This document shows positions 1 through 8,995 of a DNA stretch of 64,000 nucleotides, piece after piece (the stretch's first letter is position 1; the number at the start of each line of letters is the position of its first letter). The notes under the pieces were generated by a model. It ran no database searches and was not told the DNA's origin. It saw only the letters and a program-made list of their open reading frames with translations. Source of the DNA: Helicobacteraceae bacterium (GTDB lineage Bacteria; Campylobacterota; Campylobacteria; Campylobacterales; Helicobacteraceae); assembly GCA_050874285.1 (NCBI GenBank), contig JBNMKJ010000002.1:16374-80373 (forward strand). The letters run 5' to 3'. The position numbers and the translations under genes are program-made.

Positions 1-872
1 AGGGCAAAGATTATGAGATTTTGGAATGCACCGATGAAGTTTTCGCCCAAAATGGCGTAGAAATCGCATTTTTCTCCGCAGGTGGAAGCGTGAGTGAGCG
101 ATTCGCTCCAAGCGCGGTTAAGGCAAATGCCGTAGTGATTGATAATACAAGCCATTTTAGAATGCAAGAGGGCGTCCCACTCGTTGTCCCTGAAGTCAAT
201 AGCGAGGATATTTTCACACACAATGGCATTATCGCAAATCCAAACTGCTCTACTATCCAAATGGTGCAGGTTTTAGCACCTTTGCATAAGGCTTTTGGCA
301 TTAAGCGCGTAGATGTAGCCACTTATCAAGCCGTCAGTGGCGCGGGTAAAAAGGGTATGGAGGCGTTATTGCGCGAGACAAAAGAGTGCTTGGAGGGCAA
401 AAGCGTGGGTAGCGAAAGTAGCGTTTTCCCTTACAGCATTGCGTTTAACCTATTTCCGCACATTGATATTTTCCTAGAAAATGACTACACAAAAGAGGAA
501 GTCAAAATGATAAAAGAAACGCAAAAGATAATGCACACCGACTTTGCAGTGAGTGCGACTTGCGTTAGAGTGCCTGTGTCGCGCTCTCATAGCGAGGCTG
601 TTAGCATTCATTTTGCGCGTGAAGTGAGCGCAGATGAGGCTCGTGCGGTGCTACAAAACGCAGAAAATGTCGTGGTGGTAGATGAACCTAAAAGCCACAA
701 ATATCCTATGCCAAGCATTGCGTCCAATACGGACAGCACTTTTGTGGGGCGGATTCGTAGTGATTGCTTTGATAAGAAAATATTGCATTTATTTTGCGTG
801 GCAGACCAGATTCGCGTGGGTGCGGCGACAAATGCCGTGCGAATCGCACAGAAATTGATTGCGGGGAAATAA
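1..872 (+). CDS. asd: aspartate-semialdehyde dehydrogenase (5' truncated by window edge)
   Basis: Motifs IIANPNCSTIQM, TYQAVSGAG, TCVRVPV, DQIRVGAATNA; frame is open to the window start. Confidence 0.97.
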   Translation, partial: GKDYEILECTDEVFAQNGVEIAFFSAGGSVSERFAPSAVKANAVVIDNTSHFRMQEGVPLVVPEVNSEDIFTHNGIIANPNCSTIQMVQVLAPLHKAFGIKRVDVATYQAVSGAGKKGMEALLRETKECLEGKSVGSESSVFPYSIAFNLFPHIDIFLENDYTKEEVKMIKETQKIMHTDFAVSATCVRVPVSRSHSEAVSIHFAREVSADEARAVLQNAENVVVVDEPKSHKYPMPSIASNTDSTFVGRIRSDCFDKKILHLFCVADQIRVGAATNAVRIAQKLIAGK

Positions 873-993
873 TTCAATGATTAAGATTTTAGGTGGGATT
901 ATAGCACGATTCGCACAAGATTCACAACTCTTTGACAAATCATCGCTATGATTCCGCCTACAAATTTCAACTCATAATTCAAAGGATAAAAAT

Positions 994-1605
994 ATGAAAA
1001 TTTTTAGCAGTATGGTAGTTTCGTTTGTCGCAGGTAGTGTGCTATTTGCGAGTGATTTTAGTCAGTATAGCAACGATGAGCTGGTGAATCTAGCTGGTAG
1101 TGTCGAGGATATTTCAGGCTATATCAGCGAGGTTGAAAATCGCGTCAGCAAGATGAGCGAAAAGGAAGTCATTGAGTTTAGAAATAAGCTAAATGTTAAA
1201 GAAAAACAAATTGTAATCGCTATGAATGATGATGAAAAAGCAAACTACAAAAAAGACATTCAAGAGGCTTTGCAAACCAAAGCTACAAGCTCACGAAGCG
1301 TCATCAAAGAGGGCGCAGACAGCTTGGAAACCAAAGGCGAGGAAATCATCAAAAAAGGCGCGGATAAGCTAGAAAAAGGCAAAAAATCTCTTAGCAAAGG
1401 TGCGTCAAAAGCAAAAAGCGCGACTGAAAAAGGCGTAGAAAAAGGCACAAAAGCCATAAAAGACGGCGCAAAGAAAGGCAAAAATGCCATTGAAAGTGGC
1501 GTAAAAAAGGGCAAAAACACCATTGAAAAAGGTATCGAAAAAGGCGCAGATGAAACCGTCAAAGCGATTCAAAAAGGCGTGGAGAAATTAGAATCTAGCA
1601 ATTAA
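994..1605 (+). CDS. secreted DUF1104-like protein with C-terminal 11-aa Lys/Gly-rich repeats
   Basis: Signal peptide, [15 protein letters not shown] start resembling Helicobacter DUF1104 proteins, then about 9 imperfect 11-mers (e.g. [22 protein letters not shown]). Confidence 0.55.
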
Positions 1606-1630
1606 GATAATAATTTTATTAAGGAGTAAG

Positions 1631-2743
1631 ATGAAAAAAGCTTTAATCACAGGCATTACAGGACAAGATGGTGCGTATTTGGCTGAGCTATTGTTAGGGG
1701 GGGGGGACTATGAGGTGCACGGCATTAAAAGGCGCTCATCACTCTTTAATACTGACAGAATCGACCATTTGTATAAGGACTATCACGAGGAGGATTGTAA
1801 ATTATTTTTGCATTATGGGGATTTGACAGATTCGATGAATCTAACGCGCATTATCCAAGAAGTGCAACCTGATGAAATCTACAATCTAGCCGCGATGAGT
1901 CATGTGGCAGTAAGTTTTGAAACCCCTGAATACACCGCAAATGCAGATGGCATAGGCACACTGCGAATCTTAGAAGCGGTGCGACTACTAGGACTCACAC
2001 AGAAAACAAGAATCTATCAAGCCTCCACAAGCGAACTTTATGGACTTGTGCAAGGAATTCCGCAAAACGAAAAAACGCCTTTTTATCCGCGTAGCCCTTA
2101 TGCTTGTGCGAAACTTTATGCGTATTGGATAACGATAAATTACCGCGAGGCTTATGGTATGTTTGCGAGTAATGGCATTTTATTTAACCACGAGAGTCCC
2201 ATTCGTGGCGAAACCTTTGTAACGCGCAAAATCACAAGGGCTGCGGCAAAAATCGTGCTAGGATTGCAAGATAAACTCTATCTTGGTAATCTCTCAGCCA
2301 AAAGAGACTGGGGACACGCCAAAGATTATGTGAAAGCAATGCACCTTATCTTACAAGCACAAAAACCTGATGATTTCGTCATCGCCACAGGCATAACGAC
2401 AGAGGTAAGAGAATTTGTGCGCCTTGTCTTTGATGAACTTGGCATAGAGCTTGAATTCAAGGGCAAAGGCGTAGATGAAAAGGCTTTTGTGTCTGCTTGT
2501 AAGGGCGAATTTAAACTTCCACTTGGTAAAGAAGTCGTATGTGTGGATAGTGGGTATTTTCGTCCAACGGAGGTGGATTTACTCATCGGTGATGCGAGTA
2601 AAGCAAGGGAAAAACTAGGCTGGACGCTTGAATATGATTTGCATTCACTCATCAAGGATATGGTGCAAAGTGATTTACATTTGATGAAAAAAGACAAATA
2701 TATACAAGATGGCGGCTATAAAATTTTTAGGTATTTTGAATGA
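1631..2743 (+). CDS. gmd: GDP-mannose 4,6-dehydratase (in-frame G10 tract near 5' end)
   Basis: [69 protein letters not shown]. Confidence 0.97.
1697..1706 (+). repeat. G10 homopolymer, putative phase-variation tract in gmd (ON)
   Basis: ttgtta-GGGGGGGGGG-actat at codons 23-26. Confidence 0.85.
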
Positions 2744-3777
2744 AAAGATTACTTATCACAGGCTCTAGCGGAATGGTGGGGCGCAATGTCAAAGAACACC
2801 CAAAGGCACAAGATTATCTCGTGCTTTCCCCCACAAGCGCGGAGTTAGACTTACTAGATAAAAGCGCGGTTGATTCATACATAAAAACTCATAAGCCCGA
2901 TATTGTCGTGCATTGCGCGGGGTTAGTGGGAGGAATTGTCGCAAATATGAATAATCTCTCAAAATTTCTCACGCACAATGCATATATGGGGTTAAACCTC
3001 ATCAATTCCTGCCACCAAAATGGTGTGAAATATTTTCTAAATCTCGCAAGTTCGTGTATGTATCCGCACTCCGCGCCAAATCCGCTAAAAGAAGATATGA
3101 TTTTGCAAGGCGCGTTTGAGCCTACAAATGAGGGCTATGCTTTGGCAAAAGTGCTAGGCACTAGGCTTTGTGAATATATCAGTGGCGCGGATAAAAGTTG
3201 CCTTTATAAGACGCTAATCCCTTGCAATCTTTATGGTAAATATGACAAATTTGACACACATAGCGCACATATGATTCCCGCTGTGATTGCGCGAATCTAT
3301 AAGGCAAAGTTAGAAGGCGTGAGAAAAGTTCCTATTTGGGGCGATGGAGAGGCAAAGCGCGAATTTATGTATGCTGGGGATTTGGCGGAGTTCATATTTT
3401 ATGCAATCGCGCATTTTGGCGATTTGCCACAGAATCTAAATGTCGGCACGGGCATAGAATATAGCATCGATGAATATTACCGCGCAATCGCTAGTGTGGT
3501 AGGATTTAGCGGGGAATTTACCCACGATTTAAGCAAACCTGTAGGAATGAAACGAAAGGTTATTGATGATACGCGTTTAAAGGCTTTGGGTTGGAACGCA
3601 AAAACGCCTTTAGAGGAGGGCATAAGAAAGACTTATGAGTATTATCTAACTATAGCTGATTCCTTAGGGGGGGGGGAATCTCTATCTAGTTTTCAAGCTA
3701 GATTTAGCACTAACGCTACACGCACCACAATCGCTACAAATCTCGCCATTTGCGCAAGTCGCATAAAGGTGGCGTGA
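2740..3777 (+). CDS. fcl: GDP-L-fucose synthase family epimerase/reductase (ColC-like subgroup) with G-tract-dependent C-terminal tail
   Basis: [47 protein letters not shown]; catalytic Cys and His are present. Confidence 0.9.
3667..3676 (+). repeat. G10 homopolymer in the 3' tail of fcl
   Basis: tcctta-GGGGGGGGGG-aatctc, located after the end of the catalytic domain (KTYEYYL). Confidence 0.85.
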
Positions 3778-4322
3778 TGATAGACTTTAATATCACACAA
3801 AGTGCCACACTACACGGCGTTTATATTATCACACCTAGCATAGCTACCGATAATCGTGGCAATATCTACACTTCATTTTTAAAAGACGAGATAGACAAAC
3901 TATTGCCAAATGGGCTATGTTTTAAACACGATAAATTTTCACACTCAATTCAAAATGTCTTGCGTGGAATCCACGGCGATACAAAGTCATATAAGTTTGT
4001 CTCGTGCGTATATGGTGAGATTTTGCAAGTCGTAGTAGATATGCGCGAAAATAGCCCTACTTATTTGCAATACGAGAAATTCTACATTAGCAAAGATTCC
4101 CAAAAATTTATTTTAATCCCACCAAATATGGGGAATGCGTATTTTGTCAAAAGTAAAGAGGTTATATATCATTACAAGTTGGCTTATGAGGGCGAGTATA
4201 TAGACGCGCCCGAGCAGTTTTCACTTGCCTATAATGATGAGCGAATCGGCATTGATTGGGAGCTAAATGGTATAGAGCCCATTCTTTCAAAGCGAGATTT
4301 AAAAAGTTTAAATAAAAATTAA
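3777..4322 (+). CDS. RmlC-like NDP-4-keto-6-deoxy-sugar 3,5-epimerase (resembles C. jejuni Cj1430-type epimerase)
   Basis: NVLRGIHGD, QVVVDMRENSPTY, YHYKLAYEGEYIDAPEQF, WELNGIEPILSKRD; start ATG overlaps the fcl stop (TGATG). Confidence 0.85.
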   Translation: MIDFNITQSATLHGVYIITPSIATDNRGNIYTSFLKDEIDKLLPNGLCFKHDKFSHSIQNVLRGIHGDTKSYKFVSCVYGEILQVVVDMRENSPTYLQYEKFYISKDSQKFILIPPNMGNAYFVKSKEVIYHYKLAYEGEYIDAPEQFSLAYNDERIGIDWELNGIEPILSKRDLKSLNKN

Positions 4323-4338
4323 CAAATAAGGAGTAAAA

Positions 4339-4743
4339 ATGAGAGAAATAAAAGAGGGCGATTTAGTGTTAGCAAGGCATATTAGCGAATCTGATTGCAA
4401 AGATGGATTAAACTTTTTTTCAAGTGATGATGAGTTTATCCAAGTGGGATTTTGGGGCTATAATGAGGGCAAAAAGCTCCTTGCACACATTCACAATGAA
4501 GTTGAGCGCAAGGTGTATTGGACACAAGAAGTGCTTTTTATCAAAAAAGGTAAAATCAAAGCGAGAATCTATGATACAAAAGAAAACTTTGTCGAGGAGT
4601 TTGAGGCAGTCGCAGGGGATATTTTAATAATGCTCCGCGGGGCGCACGGCTATGATATACTTGAAAATGACACACAAGTTTTGGAGGTAAAAAATGGACC
4701 TTATGTCGGCGCAGAGCGCGATAGAAAGAGGATAGAGCAATGA
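4339..4743 (+). CDS. cupin-fold protein of sugar-nucleotide clusters
   Basis: AHIHN...TQEVL...GAHGY...EVKNGPY His/Glu cupin pattern; Shine-Dalgarno aggag upstream. Confidence 0.6.
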   Translation: MREIKEGDLVLARHISESDCKDGLNFFSSDDEFIQVGFWGYNEGKKLLAHIHNEVERKVYWTQEVLFIKKGKIKARIYDTKENFVEEFEAVAGDILIMLRGAHGYDILENDTQVLEVKNGPYVGAERDRKRIEQ

Positions 4744-5298
4744 AACTTCATCTTGGTTGTTGGCATAGGAATATCCCTGATTTTATCAATGTGGATTTGT
4801 GCGATATGCCACATATCCATTATAAAAGCAATATAGATGATTTGTCTATGTTTAAAGATGAAAGTGCAGAGCTTATTTATAGCTCACATAGTTTTGAGTA
4901 TTTTGATAGATTTGAGGCTGTGAATGTCATAAAAGAGTGGCATAGAGTGCTTAAAAAAGGTGGCACTTTAAGACTTGCCGTGCCAGATTTTGATAAACTC
5001 ATTGAAGTGTATCATTTAAGTGGAGATTTAACTAAAATTTTAGGACCACTCTATGGCAGAATGAGTATTCAAAATGCTGTTGGGGGGGGGGCAGTCTATG
5101 ATATATCATAAAACGGTGTGGAATTTTAAGCTTTTAAGCGAATTTTTAGAACAAAACGGCTTTTGTGATGTGAGGCGATATGATTGGCGAGAAACAATAC
5201 ATAAAGACTATGATGACCATTCACAAGCCTATTATCCACATATGGATAAGGAAAATGGCATTTTAATTTCACTTAATGTGGAAGCAACAAAGATTTAA
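4740..5298 (+). pseudogene. class I SAM-dependent methyltransferase, phase-OFF (frameshift at G10)
   Basis: ORF 4740-5111 (KLHLGCW, SHSFEY, WHRVLKKGGTLRLAVPD) joins ORF 5074-5298 (YHKTVWNF...SLNVEATK) if the tract is G9, giving 185 aa. Confidence 0.85.
5082..5091 (+). repeat. G10 phase-variation tract in the methyltransferase (OFF)
   Basis: gctgtt-GGGGGGGGGG-cagtct. Confidence 0.9.
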
Positions 5299-5325
5299 AT
5301 AAAAATCAAAATATAAGGAAGTGTA

Positions 5326-6417
5326 ATGGAATTTATTATGCAAATGCGTCCTTGGTTTGGGAGTGAGGAAAAACAAGCATTGAGCGAGTATATGGACGAA
5401 GATGGCTTTTTGACCGAGTTTAAGCGCACGGCAAAATTTGAGGAAATGATAGCAAATTTCATAGGGGCAAAGCACTGCATAGTGGTAAATAATGGCACTA
5501 TTAGCCTTACTCTAGCTGCTCTAGCGGTAGGAATCAAGGCAGATGATGAAGTTATCGTGCCAAATTATACGATGATAGCTACGCCAAATTCAGTGAAGAT
5601 GTTTGGCGCAAAGCCTGTGTTTGTCGATGTGGAACGCGAAACTTTGTGTATGGATATACAAAAGGCAAAAGAGGCGATTACACCTAAAACAAAGGCTATA
5701 ATGTTGGTTAGTGCAAATGGGCGGTATCCAAAGGTAGGGATTGAAGCGTTTGTAAATCTTTGCAAAGAATACAATCTCGCACTGATAGAAGATTCCGCAC
5801 AATCACTTGGCTCATTTTATCCAAATGGTAAGCATATCGGTTCGGTGGGAATCGTGGGAAGTTTTTCTTTTTCAGCCCCTAAAATCATCTCTACAGGGCA
5901 AGGCGGTGCGCTTATAACTAATGATGATGATTTAGCGAGCAAGATTCGCAAACTTAAAGACTTTGGGCGAAGCGGTGGTGGTAATGACATACACGATAGT
6001 ATAGGCTATAATTTTAAATTCACAGAGCTTCAAGCCTGTGTGGGTATAGAGCAGATGAAAAAGTTAGAATCTCGCATAGCGCGTAAAAAAGAAATCTATC
6101 AAATTTATGAAAAGGGCTTACGCAATATAAATGGTATAGAGCTTTTTAAGCAGGATTTAACTTGCACGGTGCCGTGGTTTTATGATACACTTTGTGAGAG
6201 GCGTGATGAGCTACAAGAGTTTTTAAAACAAAATAATATCGGTTCGCGTGTAATGTATCCACCGATAAACAAGCAAGTAGCTTATCAGGTAAGTGGCGAG
6301 CATACAATTTCAAATTTAGTTGGGCAAAAAGGGCTTTGGTTACCATCAGCTACGCAGCTTAGCAATGAGGAAGTGCAATATATTTGCACTAAAATCGCGG
6401 AGTTTTATGGCAGATAG
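5326..6417 (+). CDS. DegT/DnrJ/EryC1/StrS PLP-dependent sugar aminotransferase (perosamine synthase-like)
   Basis: NNGTISL, DEVIVPNYT, LIEDSAQSLG, SFSAPKIISTGQGG with the Schiff-base Lys. Confidence 0.9.
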   Translation: MEFIMQMRPWFGSEEKQALSEYMDEDGFLTEFKRTAKFEEMIANFIGAKHCIVVNNGTISLTLAALAVGIKADDEVIVPNYTMIATPNSVKMFGAKPVFVDVERETLCMDIQKAKEAITPKTKAIMLVSANGRYPKVGIEAFVNLCKEYNLALIEDSAQSLGSFYPNGKHIGSVGIVGSFSFSAPKIISTGQGGALITNDDDLASKIRKLKDFGRSGGGNDIHDSIGYNFKFTELQACVGIEQMKKLESRIARKKEIYQIYEKGLRNINGIELFKQDLTCTVPWFYDTLCERRDELQEFLKQNNIGSRVMYPPINKQVAYQVSGEHTISNLVGQKGLWLPSATQLSNEEVQYICTKIAEFYGR

Positions 6418-6546
6418 TTTGTAATATAAAAAAGTGCAAGGTAATATAATTTTTGATAAAAAATTTCTAAAAAATATTGAATTATCTTATTTTTTTGGCT
6501 AGAATTTCGATTTTTAAATTTACAAATTTGTGATTTTAAAATTTTT

Positions 6547-6621
6547 GCGGGAATAGCTCAGTGGTAGAGCGCGACCTTGCCAAGGTCGAGGCCGCGGGTT
6601 CGAAACCCGTTTCCCGCTCCA
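6547..6621 (+). tRNA. tRNA-Gly(GCC)
   Basis: GCGGGAA/TTCCCGC acceptor stem, anticodon loop CT-T-GCC-AA, GGTTCGAA T-loop, encoded CCA. Confidence 0.97.
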
Positions 6622-6668
6622 AGAAATAAATCTTTATTAAATCATCATTTTTTTATACGCGAAATCAA

Positions 6669-6756
6669 GCTCGGGTGGTGGAATTGGTAGACACAAGGGA
6701 CTTAAAATCCCTCGGATATTGCTTCCGTGCCGGTTCAAGTCCGGCTTCGAGCACCA
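6669..6756 (+). tRNA. tRNA-Leu(TAA)
   Basis: GCTCGGG/TTCGAGC stem, AGGGA-CT-TAA-AA-TCCCT anticodon arm, long variable arm, CCA. Confidence 0.96.
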
Positions 6757-6765
6757 CGATTTTGT

Positions 6766-6840
6766 GGCGACATAGCCAAGTGGTAAGGCGTGGGCCTGCA
6801 AAGCCTTGATTCCCCAGTTCGAATCTGGGTGTCGCCTCCA
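6766..6840 (+). tRNA. tRNA-Cys(GCA)
   Basis: GGCGACA/TGTCGCC stem, CT-GCA-AA anticodon loop, CCA. Confidence 0.96.
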
Positions 6841-6864
6841 AAGATTTTATATTTAGCAAAAAAG

Positions 6865-6952
6865 CGGGAGATGGCTGAGTGGTTGAAAGCGGCGGTCTTG
6901 AAAACCGTTGAGGGTAACACCTCCGGGGGTTCGAATCCCTCTCTCCCGGCCA
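6865..6952 (+). tRNA. tRNA-Ser(TGA)
   Basis: CGGGAGA/TCTCCCG stem, GCGGT-CT-TGA-AA-ACCGT arm, long variable arm, CCA. Confidence 0.96.
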
Positions 6953-7061
6953 CGAAACTACAAAAATAAATCCACCCACATTAAAACCAAAATAAATTGT
7001 ATAATTTAGCAGTTTTTTGTGCTACAATTTCGGCACATTTATATAAAATTCACATAAAGGA

Positions 7062-7553
7062 ATGATAATGAAAAGGCTTATTTTAGGCATTTTGGTATTT
7101 TGTGGTTTGATAGTTTGCGCTGAGGCTGGGCGTTTGAGTGATAGAGAAACAAAAAAATACCAGCACTATATGAAAAGGTGGTCGATTCTAAAGAATGATA
7201 ATTTAGATTTTTATAATGGTTGCAAACAAGATGGCACTTTCAAGGGTTGTGAGGAACGCACAGAAATTGTGAAGCGTTTGATTTGGCTACAACACGCTGA
7301 TAAATACGGCAAACCTGCGGCAAATAAGATACTTACTGAAAAATGGGGCGAGTGGTTTGAGCTAAAATGGGGAACTGAGGGCAATGATAGAAATAATGTA
7401 TTTGTAGTGTTGGAGCAGGATTTGAAGTTAGAGGAGATTCGCCGTGGCAAAAATGCCGCTGCAAAAGCCCACTATAAGATTAACAAAGATGATATAAAAA
7501 CAAAAAACAAAAAGAAAAATGCGGATAAAAAGAGCACAAAAAACGCGCAATGA
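7062..7553 (+). CDS. hypothetical secreted protein, Trp-rich core and Lys-rich tail
   Basis: aagga Shine-Dalgarno, N-terminal signal peptide (MKRLILGILVFCGLIVCAEA), no recognised family. Confidence 0.65.
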   Translation: MIMKRLILGILVFCGLIVCAEAGRLSDRETKKYQHYMKRWSILKNDNLDFYNGCKQDGTFKGCEERTEIVKRLIWLQHADKYGKPAANKILTEKWGEWFELKWGTEGNDRNNVFVVLEQDLKLEEIRRGKNAAAKAHYKINKDDIKTKNKKKNADKKSTKNAQ

Positions 7554-7600
7554 TTTGCTCATAAAAGATTCGCGCGATTCGTCCCACAATGACAATTATG

Positions 7601-7618
7601 TTGGAATCCTTTTTGCTT
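7601..7618 (+). promoter_or_regulatory. sigma-54 (-24/-12) promoter upstream of the flgJ-like gene
   Basis: TTGGAATCCTTTTTGCTT = GG-N10-GC, about 40 nt upstream of a flagellar gene. Confidence 0.7.
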
Positions 7619-7658
7619 TGATTATTGCGAAAATAACGCCATTTTAAAGGATAAAGCA

Positions 7659-7961
7659 ATGCGAATCGATTCCACCACTGCGCTATATAACCCCGCCATT
7701 TTAAATAAGCCCATAAATTACATTAGCAAAGCCACTGATGACACGAAATTGCGTGAGCAAACAGACGCATTTGAGGCGTTAATATTAAAGTTTATGCTAG
7801 ATATTGCCATAAAATTCGACAATCCGCTTTATCCTAAAGAGGCTGGGAGCGCGATTTATGAATCTATGTATAAAGATAGCGTTGCAGACGCGCTTAGCGG
7901 GAGTTTTGGGTATAGCGAGTTGCTTTATAATTATCTCAAAGATTTGCAAAAAGAAGCCTAA
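7659..7961 (+). CDS. flgJ: flagellar rod-binding protein (single-domain FlgJ-like)
   Basis: KLREQTDAFEALILKFMLD...IYESMYKDSVADALSGSFGYSELLY rod-binding pattern. Confidence 0.8.
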   Translation: MRIDSTTALYNPAILNKPINYISKATDDTKLREQTDAFEALILKFMLDIAIKFDNPLYPKEAGSAIYESMYKDSVADALSGSFGYSELLYNYLKDLQKEA

Positions 7962-8995
7962 TGGAAAATCTCGATGAGGTTTTTAAGCAAATCATAAGCG
8001 AGTATAGCACTCACAGCACGGCTAAAGAGCGGGATTCCGCGCTAAAAATATTAGATGCTTTTATCAAGCAAATTGATTCCGCACAGTGCGAATATAATGA
8101 ATTGCAAAACACCTTTAATCTCGTGCTAGAGGCACTTCCTACGCCTATTTGGGTAATCAATAGCGATGGGAGCTTTTTTTACCACAATAGCGGGGCAAGG
8201 AAGATTCATAGCATTTTGGAGCTTTGTCCGCAGGATTTTAGCGAGTTTGAGGTGGCATTAGGCGATGAAAGCTACCTAATGCACAAAATCATCAAAAACG
8301 ACAAAATCATCATAACAGCCACAAATATCACAAACGAAAAGCAACGCGAGAGATTAGCGAATATGGGGCAGATTGCAGCGCATTTGGCGCACGAGATTCG
8401 CAATCCTGTGGGCGCAATCACGCTAATGATTTCAAGCCTATTAAATGAAAATTTGGAGCTAAAGGCGAAACTTTGCATTTTGCAGATGAAAAAGGCGATT
8501 TGGCAGGTGGAGCGACTGATAAAGGCGACTTTAATGCTAAGCAAGGGCATTCAATCCACGCGCACTAGGCATAAAAGTGAGATTATCCAAAATTGCATAG
8601 AGGACTGCTTAAGCTATTTTGACTATGCCAAAAAAATCGATTTTTCCTTTGACATAAGGGCTGAATGGATTGTCTGCGATGGCGAATTGCTAAATATTTT
8701 GCTCCAAAATCTCATCTCAAATGCGATTGATTGTATCGAGGAGAGCGAGAGCGCAACGCGTGGCGAAATCAAAGTCGCCTTTGAATGCGTGTGCGAAGTG
8801 CAGATTTTGCGCGTGTATGACAATGGCGAGGAAGCGCGTGAAGTGGAAAATCTCTTTACCGCCTTTAAAAGCACAAAGGCAAAGGGTAATGGACTAGGAC
8901 TAGCACTCTGCAAACAAATCGCAGAGGCGCACAACGGCGAGATTCTCTACCAAAAAGAGCCAAAATGCTTTGTGGTAAGGCTAGGGAAATCATAA
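7961..8995 (+). CDS. flgS: cytoplasmic sensor histidine kinase, FlgS-like
   Basis: H-box LAHEIRNPVG, N-box QNLISNAID, STKAKGNGLGL; no TM segments; follows flgJ as in Helicobacter. Confidence 0.8.
   Translation: MENLDEVFKQIISEYSTHSTAKERDSALKILDAFIKQIDSAQCEYNELQNTFNLVLEALPTPIWVINSDGSFFYHNSGARKIHSILELCPQDFSEFEVALGDESYLMHKIIKNDKIIITATNITNEKQRERLANMGQIAAHLAHEIRNPVGAITLMISSLLNENLELKAKLCILQMKKAIWQVERLIKATLMLSKGIQSTRTRHKSEIIQNCIEDCLSYFDYAKKIDFSFDIRAEWIVCDGELLNILLQNLISNAIDCIEESESATRGEIKVAFECVCEVQILRVYDNGEEAREVENLFTAFKSTKAKGNGLGLALCKQIAEAHNGEILYQKEPKCFVVRLGKS

Follow-up and report, generated by a model that had tools for sequence, protein, structure and literature searches.

A run of ten G residues at the end of an fcl-like gene probably acts as a phase-variable gate on the translation of the gene that follows it, which encodes a GDP-sugar epimerase, rather than as a switch of fcl itself. 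The run (the G10 tract) occupies positions 3667 to 3676 on the plus strand of a 64,000-nucleotide (nt) stretch of DNA from a Helicobacteraceae bacterium (GenBank assembly GCA_050874285.1, contig JBNMKJ010000002.1, positions 16,374 to 80,373), referred to below as the window. Three lines of comparative evidence argue strongly for translational coupling between the two genes: the same layout recurs behind two unrelated upstream genes, a reading frame stays open from the tract to the start of the epimerase gene, and a hairpin over that start is predicted only in the company of the tract. Phase variation is usually read as ON/OFF switching of the gene that bears the repeat, and tracts at the ends of open reading frames (ORFs) are usually dismissed as having little effect. 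An earlier note on this DNA had proposed that slippage in the tract works as a rheostat on coupling. I find that coupling to the next gene is indeed the most likely target, but that an ON/OFF effect on the epimerase is likelier than a smooth rheostat.

The tract and its reading frames

The ORF that carries the tract runs, as assembled (the G10 state), from 2740 to 3777 on the plus strand and encodes 345 amino acids (aa). The NCBIfam Fcl profile (GDPFucSynFcl, 308 positions) matches residues 2 to 305, and the tract, a putative hypermutable switch element, takes up codons 310 to 313, base 3667 being the first base of codon 310. Because the profile match stops at residue 305, the tract is placed beyond the catalytic domain, as the earlier note held, and with that domain kept in all three frames a change in tract length would not switch fcl off but would alter only its tail. 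The ORF scores 297 bits against a cut-off of 500 bits for the Fcl equivalog NF047922. On this evidence its product belongs to the Fcl-like short-chain dehydrogenase/reductase (SDR) family, and it may be the C4-reductase of another GDP-sugar, by analogy with the "fcl" genes of Campylobacter jejuni capsule loci.

The states G8 to G12 were generated in silico by replacing the run at 3667-3676. With ten G's (or thirteen) the ORF runs to TGA 3775-3777, the A of which is also the first base of the epimerase start codon, ATG 3777-3779, so that the two together read TGATG (3775-3779); this is the fully coupled state. With nine or twelve the ORF ends at TAA 3764-3766, 10 nt before the ATG and inside the internal loop of the hairpin predicted over the start region, a near-coupled state. 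With eight or eleven it ends directly past the tract, at TAG 3687-3689, and 87 nt are left untranslated up to the epimerase ATG, which makes this the uncoupled state. The products are 345 aa (G10), 341 aa (G9) and 316 aa (G11) long. The 100-nt leader between tract and start codon (3677-3776) is translated only at G9/G12, as far as 3766, or at G10/G13, as far as 3777. The stops agree in each case with those read in the earlier note, as does the absence of any tract length that fuses the two proteins: the epimerase frame is closed by stops at 3687, 3699 and 3705, and an Fcl-epimerase fusion protein is for this reason impossible at every tract length.

In the G10 frame of the leader no internal ATG or TTG start was found, the only candidate being a GTG one codon before the stop. 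Neither a sigma-70-like promoter nor a terminator was found on the plus strand of 3667-3777, and a minus-strand gene across the tract was rejected, since no ORF of at least 60 aa was found there. No Rfam match was obtained in 3400-4000 at E values up to 1, and a gene for a RepG-like small RNA (sRNA) is not expected in that stretch. The leader was also considered as a member of the genome's palindromic repeat family and discarded, its matches being words of only 12 to 19 nt. An 8-bp hairpin (3684-3703; AUCUAGUU/AGCUAGAU, with one G-U pair and the loop UUCA) surrounds the TAG at 3687-3689; it is kept in the sister species G008 and is weaker in L006.

That G10 is the native frame is not borne out by comparison with homologues. 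The closest tract-free Fcl homologues (73-81% identity) are 316 aa long and have the C-termini ...PEFVACKGIVE*, ...KGIVV* and ...KGIEL*. With G11 the window protein is exactly 316 aa and ends in ...SLGGGGISI*, and the short-frame tails of the window and two other lineages (GISI*, GVVI* and GIII*) resemble the family's KGIVE*, KGIVV* and KGIEL*. Judging from the length of the tract-free homologues and from the match of the short-frame tails to the family ends, the G8/G11 frame is the ancestral, native frame of fcl, whose stop is the TAG just past the tract. The assembled G10, and the G9 of G008 and L006, would be read-through states that cross what was formerly an intergenic spacer of 87 nt. 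Both swap out the conserved last three residues and append a read-through tail of 29-33 residues. A conserved peptide in this tail was looked for and rejected, as the tails vary among lineages and evolve roughly neutrally.

The genome from which the window comes (Helicobacteraceae, 41% G+C, 2.0 Mb in 50 contigs, 96% complete) has as its closest named matches Helicobacter spp. and a Helicobacteraceae metagenome-assembled genome. It contains 117 G/C runs of at least 8, and the distribution of run lengths is sharply bimodal (37 runs of length 6, 3 of 7, 12 of 8, 61 of 9, 25 of 10, 12 of 11 and 7 of 12). The number of long runs and the gap at 7 argue that the G10 at 3667 did not arise by chance, and its length falls within the cluster of 8 to 12 that marks the genome's hypermutable range. 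No match to mutL was found in the genome (96% complete, as stated), nor was mutS1, the sole mutS-like match scoring 66 bits against a cut-off of 642 bits. Variation in tract length with constant flanks is seen at homologous loci only: the tract is G9 in G008, G11 in L011 and G10 in L031 (for L006 both G9 and G10 are given), and over 2 kb the assemblies L034 (G11) and L035 (G9) differ in nothing but the tract. The organism's one other assembly (L053) also has G10.

The position of the tract within its ORF is a rare one. Of the 117 runs, 51 fall within the initial 20% of an ORF and 41 in its middle part; 22 are in intergenic regions or small ORFs, and only 3 fall within the final 15%. The other two 3'-proximal tracts (C7:29363-29371 and C11:25736-25746) were tried as instances of the same layout and rejected, there being no read-through to the next start. 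The former sits in a glycosyltransferase-like ORF, in which the 33 codons past the tract resemble, by eye, a genuine C-terminal segment; the latter sits 12 codons from the end of a 270-aa ORF and is without downstream coupling. Within the window, tracts begin at 1697, 3667, 5082, 15590 and 50801, three besides that at 3667 falling within the first 16 kb and two of these three (1697 and 5082) belonging to the same operon. Read on the G strand, the runs have strongly biased flanks: A occupies the second position past the run in 98 of 117 cases, A or C the first position in 104, the four bases preceding the run are A/T-rich with nearly no G, and GGGGGGGGGAA is found 52 times genome-wide.

Epimerase loci in related genomes

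The gene behind the tract (3777-4322, plus strand), the proposed target of the switch, encodes a 181-aa protein of the rmlC family (94 bits). Its best solved relatives are the C. jejuni GDP-D-glycero-4-keto-D-lyxo-heptose epimerases 8DB5, 8DCO and 7M14, with 8DCL a further solved C. jejuni enzyme (E 3e-72 to 8e-69 over the four), and true RmlC structures match it at 1e-21 or weaker. These matches assign it as a Cj1430-like GDP-4-keto-sugar 3,5- (or 3-) epimerase.

Loci of this epimerase were surveyed in one genome per species across the order (Campylobacterales) and the family, and in metagenome and assembly contigs, giving 46 usable loci. A run of G8 to G13 lies within 225 nt upstream in 33 of them, and in every case it stands at the very 3' terminus of the preceding ORF. 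For 30 of these loci there is a length class that puts the stop of that ORF between -1 and +10 nt from the epimerase start codon, usually in the form TGATG or TAATG (the former is what the window shows at G10), with the remaining length classes stopping 37-187 nt upstream of the ATG. In the window's clade two length classes reach the start region. The distance from tract to ATG ranges from 51 to 195 nt across loci. Both states are represented, with 16 assemblies coupled and 14 uncoupled. Tract-bearing loci occur in at least three clades of the epimerase tree, interleaved with tract-less loci.

The frame that leads to the start region is kept open to a degree beyond that expected from composition. 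It is open in 23 of 26 distinct leaders, as compared to 13.7 expected from composition-matched shuffles (P = 3e-7), and the signal is carried mostly by the long leaders (165-195 nt, each with P of 0.02-0.07). An initial form of the test, applied to fewer lineages, was weak taken alone (product 0.003 for a specific frame in four lineages and 0.008 for any frame in nine).

As far as gene order and sequence can tell, the tract and leader go with the epimerase gene and not with fcl. Those close fcl homologues that are followed by a fucosyltransferase gene are free of a tract and are separated from it only by a gap of 25-60 nt. Those followed by an epimerase of the type at 3777-4322 have the tract (in the window, G008, L006, L011 and L031). 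In Campylobacter sp. MIT 12-8780 the epimerase is 80% identical to that of the window and Fcl only 35% identical, yet a G9/G11 tract is found at the very end of Fcl. The gene that ends in the tract encodes an unrelated RfbH/ColD-like pyridoxal phosphate (PLP) enzyme in L045-L047, L055 and others, and the leaders of L031 (behind fcl) and L055 (behind the PLP enzyme) are homologous. Since tract and leader recur behind divergent Fcl proteins and behind an unrelated PLP enzyme, they appear to travel with the epimerase. This association with the epimerase rather than with fcl, and the apparently ancestral G8/G11 frame, are the new elements in the present account. A broader proposal, which I would place a little short of an even chance, is that poly-G, one-frame leader ORF, start hairpin and stop over ATG make up a portable cassette, which moves with Cj1430-like epimerases through the Helicobacteraceae and Campylobacteraceae and gates their translation behind any upstream ORF.

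Some other features of these loci may be recorded here. The GT10 fucosyltransferase behind the tract-free fcl is called at 229 aa in one pair of assemblies and at 367 aa in another (L007/L009 as against L008/L010), in otherwise similar context, and its gene is probably another phase-variable one. In two relatives RelB/ParE-type toxin-antitoxin genes stand directly upstream of fcl (L012, 2415-2947; L011, 164-445), in L012 between an rmlC-like gene and fcl; insertions of this kind beside fcl suggest that cassettes are shuffled at the locus. In L034-L036 (positions 1-1397; Campylobacter sp. MIT 12-8780-like) the gene before the Fcl-like reductase has a product of 706-732 aa that combines SDR epimerase/dehydratase and DegT aminotransferase domains, an apparent fusion enzyme.

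The epimerase start region and the proposed gate

The epimerase gene has a Shine-Dalgarno (SD)-like sequence, AAGGTGG, at 3765-3771, within a context, AGG[CT][TG]GCNT[GA]ATG, that is common to tract-bearing loci. A hairpin is predicted to form over the translation-initiation region (3740-3778, plus strand), in which the 5' arm at 3744-3750 (CGCCAUU) pairs with 3768-3774 (GGUGGCG, including part of the SD sequence). Further predicted helices join 3751-3754 to 3760-3763 (inner) and 3740-3742 to 3776-3778 (outer). The hairpin has a calculated energy of -15.4 kcal/mol (z -2.43, with 5 of 200 shuffles equally good), and G008 preserves the helix through changes of U.G to C-G and of U.G to U-A. The model thus places the SD sequence and AUG of the window's epimerase in pairings inside the region that the upstream frame translates.

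A similar arrangement is predicted at the other tract-bearing loci, where part of the leader pairs with the SD sequence or AUG of the epimerase gene. Clades differ in the sequences and in the register of the pairing: L051 has CGCAACCU/AGGUUGCG, L046 a 14-bp helix, and L045 CUAUCGCCAUU/AAUGGCGAUAG across the AUG. The mean unpaired probability over positions -14 to +3 is 0.28 in tract-bearing and 0.56 in tract-less loci (Mann-Whitney p 5e-5), and the mean minimum free energy of 75-nt windows is -20.1 as against -7.0 kcal/mol (Mann-Whitney p 9e-6), both p-values overstating the independence of loci that are phylogenetically related. In a second sample the unpaired probabilities were 0.32 and 0.64, respectively. 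When each leader was compared with mononucleotide shuffles of itself, the combined Fisher p over nine lineages was 2e-4 for accessibility and 3e-8 for energy. There are also natural controls. In L059, where the tract has decayed to G6, and in L030, L032 and L054, where the epimerase gene lies behind tonB with a promoter of its own, the start region is unstructured and the SD sequence strong.

A different repeat is present in the last of these lineages, in which the epimerase operon lies behind exbD-tonB and has no G tract. In L030, L032, L033 and L054 a run of T10 directly adjoins an extended -10-like TGTTAAAAT, approximately 60-75 nt upstream of the epimerase ATG. The length of the run is constant in L030, L032 and L033. 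It may be a promoter-level repeat that controls the same epimerase operon.

The mechanism I propose begins with replication slippage, which in a genome without MutS1 and MutL would alter the length of the tract and so determine the frame in which ribosomes exit it. At G8/G11, Fcl would end at TAG 3687-3689 with the C-terminus typical of its family, and ribosomes would come off the mRNA 87 nt short of the epimerase start. The SD sequence would remain paired with the leader at 3744-3750, and translation of the epimerase would for that reason be poor (OFF or low). At G9/G12 and G10/G13, ribosomes coming from fcl would translate the leader, melt the hairpin, and terminate either at TAA 3764-3766, 10 nt short of the ATG, or at the stop that overlaps the ATG in TGATG 3775-3779, from where they could reinitiate (ON). 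The G10 of the assembly would represent the fully coupled state. On this scheme one class of the window is OFF-like (G8/G11) and two are ON-like (G9 and G10), while most other lineages would have one ON-like class and two OFF-like ones. Ribosomal or transcriptional slippage on the run could make the gate leaky. Epimerases of this family set the C3/C5 stereochemistry of GDP-4-keto sugars in the capsules of C. jejuni, where it is the combination of epimerase and reductase that sets the stereochemistry of the sugar (a point also reflected in the titles of PDB entries). I infer that coupling raises the translation of the epimerase and thereby changes the surface sugar that is made.

Several observations weigh against the proposal, besides the relatedness of the loci compared. 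In three of the tract-bearing loci (L061-L063) none of the frames extends to the start, and short leaders (51-60 nt) are often open by chance (P 0.8-0.97). Homopolymer lengths taken from short-read assemblies may be wrong. The hairpin of the window is only moderate as compared to shuffles (z from -1.7, in a 75-nt context, to -2.4), a test focused on its SD sequence was not significant (0.15), and the start regions of tract-less loci are also more AT-rich. Because a recognisable SD sequence is present, some independent initiation at the epimerase gene is likely. Finally, that coupling would activate the epimerase rather than occlude its start is suggested solely by the predicted burial of the start region.

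Two neighbouring genes of the window bear tracts of the familiar kind. Upstream, on the plus strand, lies gmd (1631-2743), which encodes GDP-mannose 4,6-dehydratase and is the pathway's first gene. It has its own G10 (1697-1706, at codon 23), in frame here (ON), and from its place in the same operon this tract is apparently the master switch of the whole GDP-sugar pathway. Downstream of the epimerase gene, also on the plus strand, are a cupin gene (4339-4743), a methyltransferase gene split by a G10 at 5082-5091 into ORFs 4740-5111 and 5074-5298 (OFF here), and a gene for a DegT-type aminotransferase (5326-6417). The methyltransferase is intact (185 aa) in G008 (G9), L006 and L032 and is split also in L031, a pattern that marks its gene, two genes past the epimerase, as a standard ON/OFF phase-variable one. 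The genes from 4339 to 6417 are likely to be affected by polarity or coupling. From the roles of these tracts it may be supposed that the gmd tract can turn off the pathway as a whole and that the methyltransferase tract switches a decoration on and off, and that the tract at the end of fcl would toggle the epimerase branch independently.

Alternatives, precedents and significance

A run at the end of an ORF might simply be tolerated as harmless in a genome rich in runs, so that the changes it causes in tail and coupling have no selected role. The 117 tracts of a genome without mismatch repair (mutL, mutS1), the catalytic domain kept in all three frames and the modest structural signal of the window itself all speak for such a neutral by-product. 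Yet 3'-terminal tracts account for only 3 of the 117 genome-wide, as compared to 33 of 46 loci of one epimerase family, where they stand behind two unrelated genes. The open frame to the start is moreover maintained (P 3e-7) and the start region structured only where the tract is present, and I consider a by-product quite unlikely. Phase variation of the C-terminus of Fcl is another possibility: tails of 29-33 residues could alter folding, oligomerisation or turnover and thereby tune the output of GDP-sugar. The G9 and G10 forms do lose the conserved last three residues and gain a long tail, and an effect of this sort could coexist with coupling. The tails, however, differ between lineages, and between L031 and L055 their evolution is near neutral (4 synonymous and 7 non-synonymous changes in 20 codons). 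The same tract and leader stand behind a PLP enzyme in other species, and both the stop over the ATG and the buried start region would be left without a reason. This account is thus very unlikely, and the effect on Fcl stability suggested in the earlier note is disfavoured by the same occurrence behind the PLP enzyme and by the lack of conservation of the tail peptides.

Control might also be exerted at the level of RNA, in a graded manner and without translation of the leader, with the G-repeat as a length-sensitive target of a C/U-rich, RepG-like sRNA or through the folding, stability or Rho loading of the mRNA. The leader of the window is richer in C than in G (27% as against 18%), but that of L031 has no such excess (18% C and 19% G). 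The skew was accordingly rejected as a general sign of Rho action, and the polarity proposed in the earlier note finds no consistent support, the excess of C over G in the window leader being absent from relatives. Control of this kind, which I regard as unlikely, accounts neither for the frame that is kept open as far as the start codon nor for the fact that the states recur every 3 nt, and with 117 tracts a RepG-like RNA would have a very large regulon. The run might instead be the scar of a recombination event, marking a microhomology junction at which the epimerase cassette was joined to different upstream genes, or it might be part of an internal promoter. The cassette is indeed a mosaic, in which epimerases of 80-91% identity go with upstream genes that share 35% identity or are unrelated, and homologous leaders are found behind different genes; RGEGIEL* in P0014 and RGGG... 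in P0013 suggest that the run lies exactly at the joint. A scar would decay, however, yet the runs are held at G8-G13, the genome's hypermutable range. A promoter element is countered by the failure to find a sigma-70-like promoter in 3667-3777 and by a tract-to-ATG distance (51-195 nt) that argues against a role in spacing. I regard either as highly improbable as the whole explanation. An origin by recombination is in any case compatible with a function in coupling and does not exclude it.

Translational coupling by ribosomes that unmask a sequestered start region is known from the coat and replicase genes of phage MS2 and from rpmI-rplT of Escherichia coli. There too the downstream SD sequence or AUG is paired inside the upstream translated region and the stop adjoins or overlaps the start. 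Coupling in those cases is constitutive, whereas that proposed here would be heritable and stochastic, and further slippage could undo it. Poly-G phase variation of the standard intragenic type, exemplified by the neighbouring gmd and methyltransferase genes, uses a like repeat in like glycan loci of Campylobacter and Helicobacter. In that case a tract early or in the middle of an ORF truncates its own protein, whereas the tract considered here spares the catalytic domain of its own protein and most likely acts on the next gene.

In the RepG/tlpB-hp0102 system, a G-repeat in the 5' untranslated region (UTR) confers graded post-transcriptional control via an sRNA, and its authors argue against direct coupling (PMC8295292). 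That system likewise has a length-variable G-repeat upstream of a Helicobacter surface-glycan gene and acts post-transcriptionally rather than by plain ON/OFF switching of the repeat-bearing gene. It differs in that the repeat lies in a 5' UTR and pairs with an sRNA, whereas here it lies at the end of an ORF and the states follow the reading frame. The closest precedent comes from a review of phase variation in Campylobacter, according to which a simple sequence repeat at the end of an ORF may exert a polar effect on the downstream gene (PMC8355987). The case in point, stemming from work of 2012 as summarised in that review, is cj0045, whose non-truncated form overlaps cj0044; coupling is named there as one possibility and the effect is presented as suspected. 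There, as here, the upstream protein is little changed by a 3'-terminal G tract, the non-truncated ORF overlaps the next start, and coupling or polarity is proposed. That case, however, is a single locus, whereas the layout described here recurs in approximately 30 loci of a single enzyme family whose upstream genes are unrelated, with a leader of 51-195 nt translated in just one frame and a start region predicted to be buried. No description of the epimerase-linked tract module was found in the literature searched, itself an incomplete library.

If the proposal is true, a tract at the 3' end of one gene switches the gene after it, by way of ribosome traffic. The switch would be conserved across many species of Helicobacteraceae and Campylobacter, at an enzyme that sets the C3/C5 stereochemistry of GDP-sugars in capsule or lipopolysaccharide. 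The annotation of phasomes would change, as tracts at 3' ends and in "intergenic" positions upstream of coupled genes would have to be counted as switches, and the type of mechanism suspected at cj0045/cj0044 would gain some 30 natural replicates. Should the reading of the module as a portable cassette also hold, phase-variable translational coupling would for the first time have good support as a conserved mechanism. For the organisms themselves, cells would be able to flip the stereochemistry of a surface sugar while keeping the sugar, which would explain the occurrence of non-stoichiometric sugar epimers in surface glycans.

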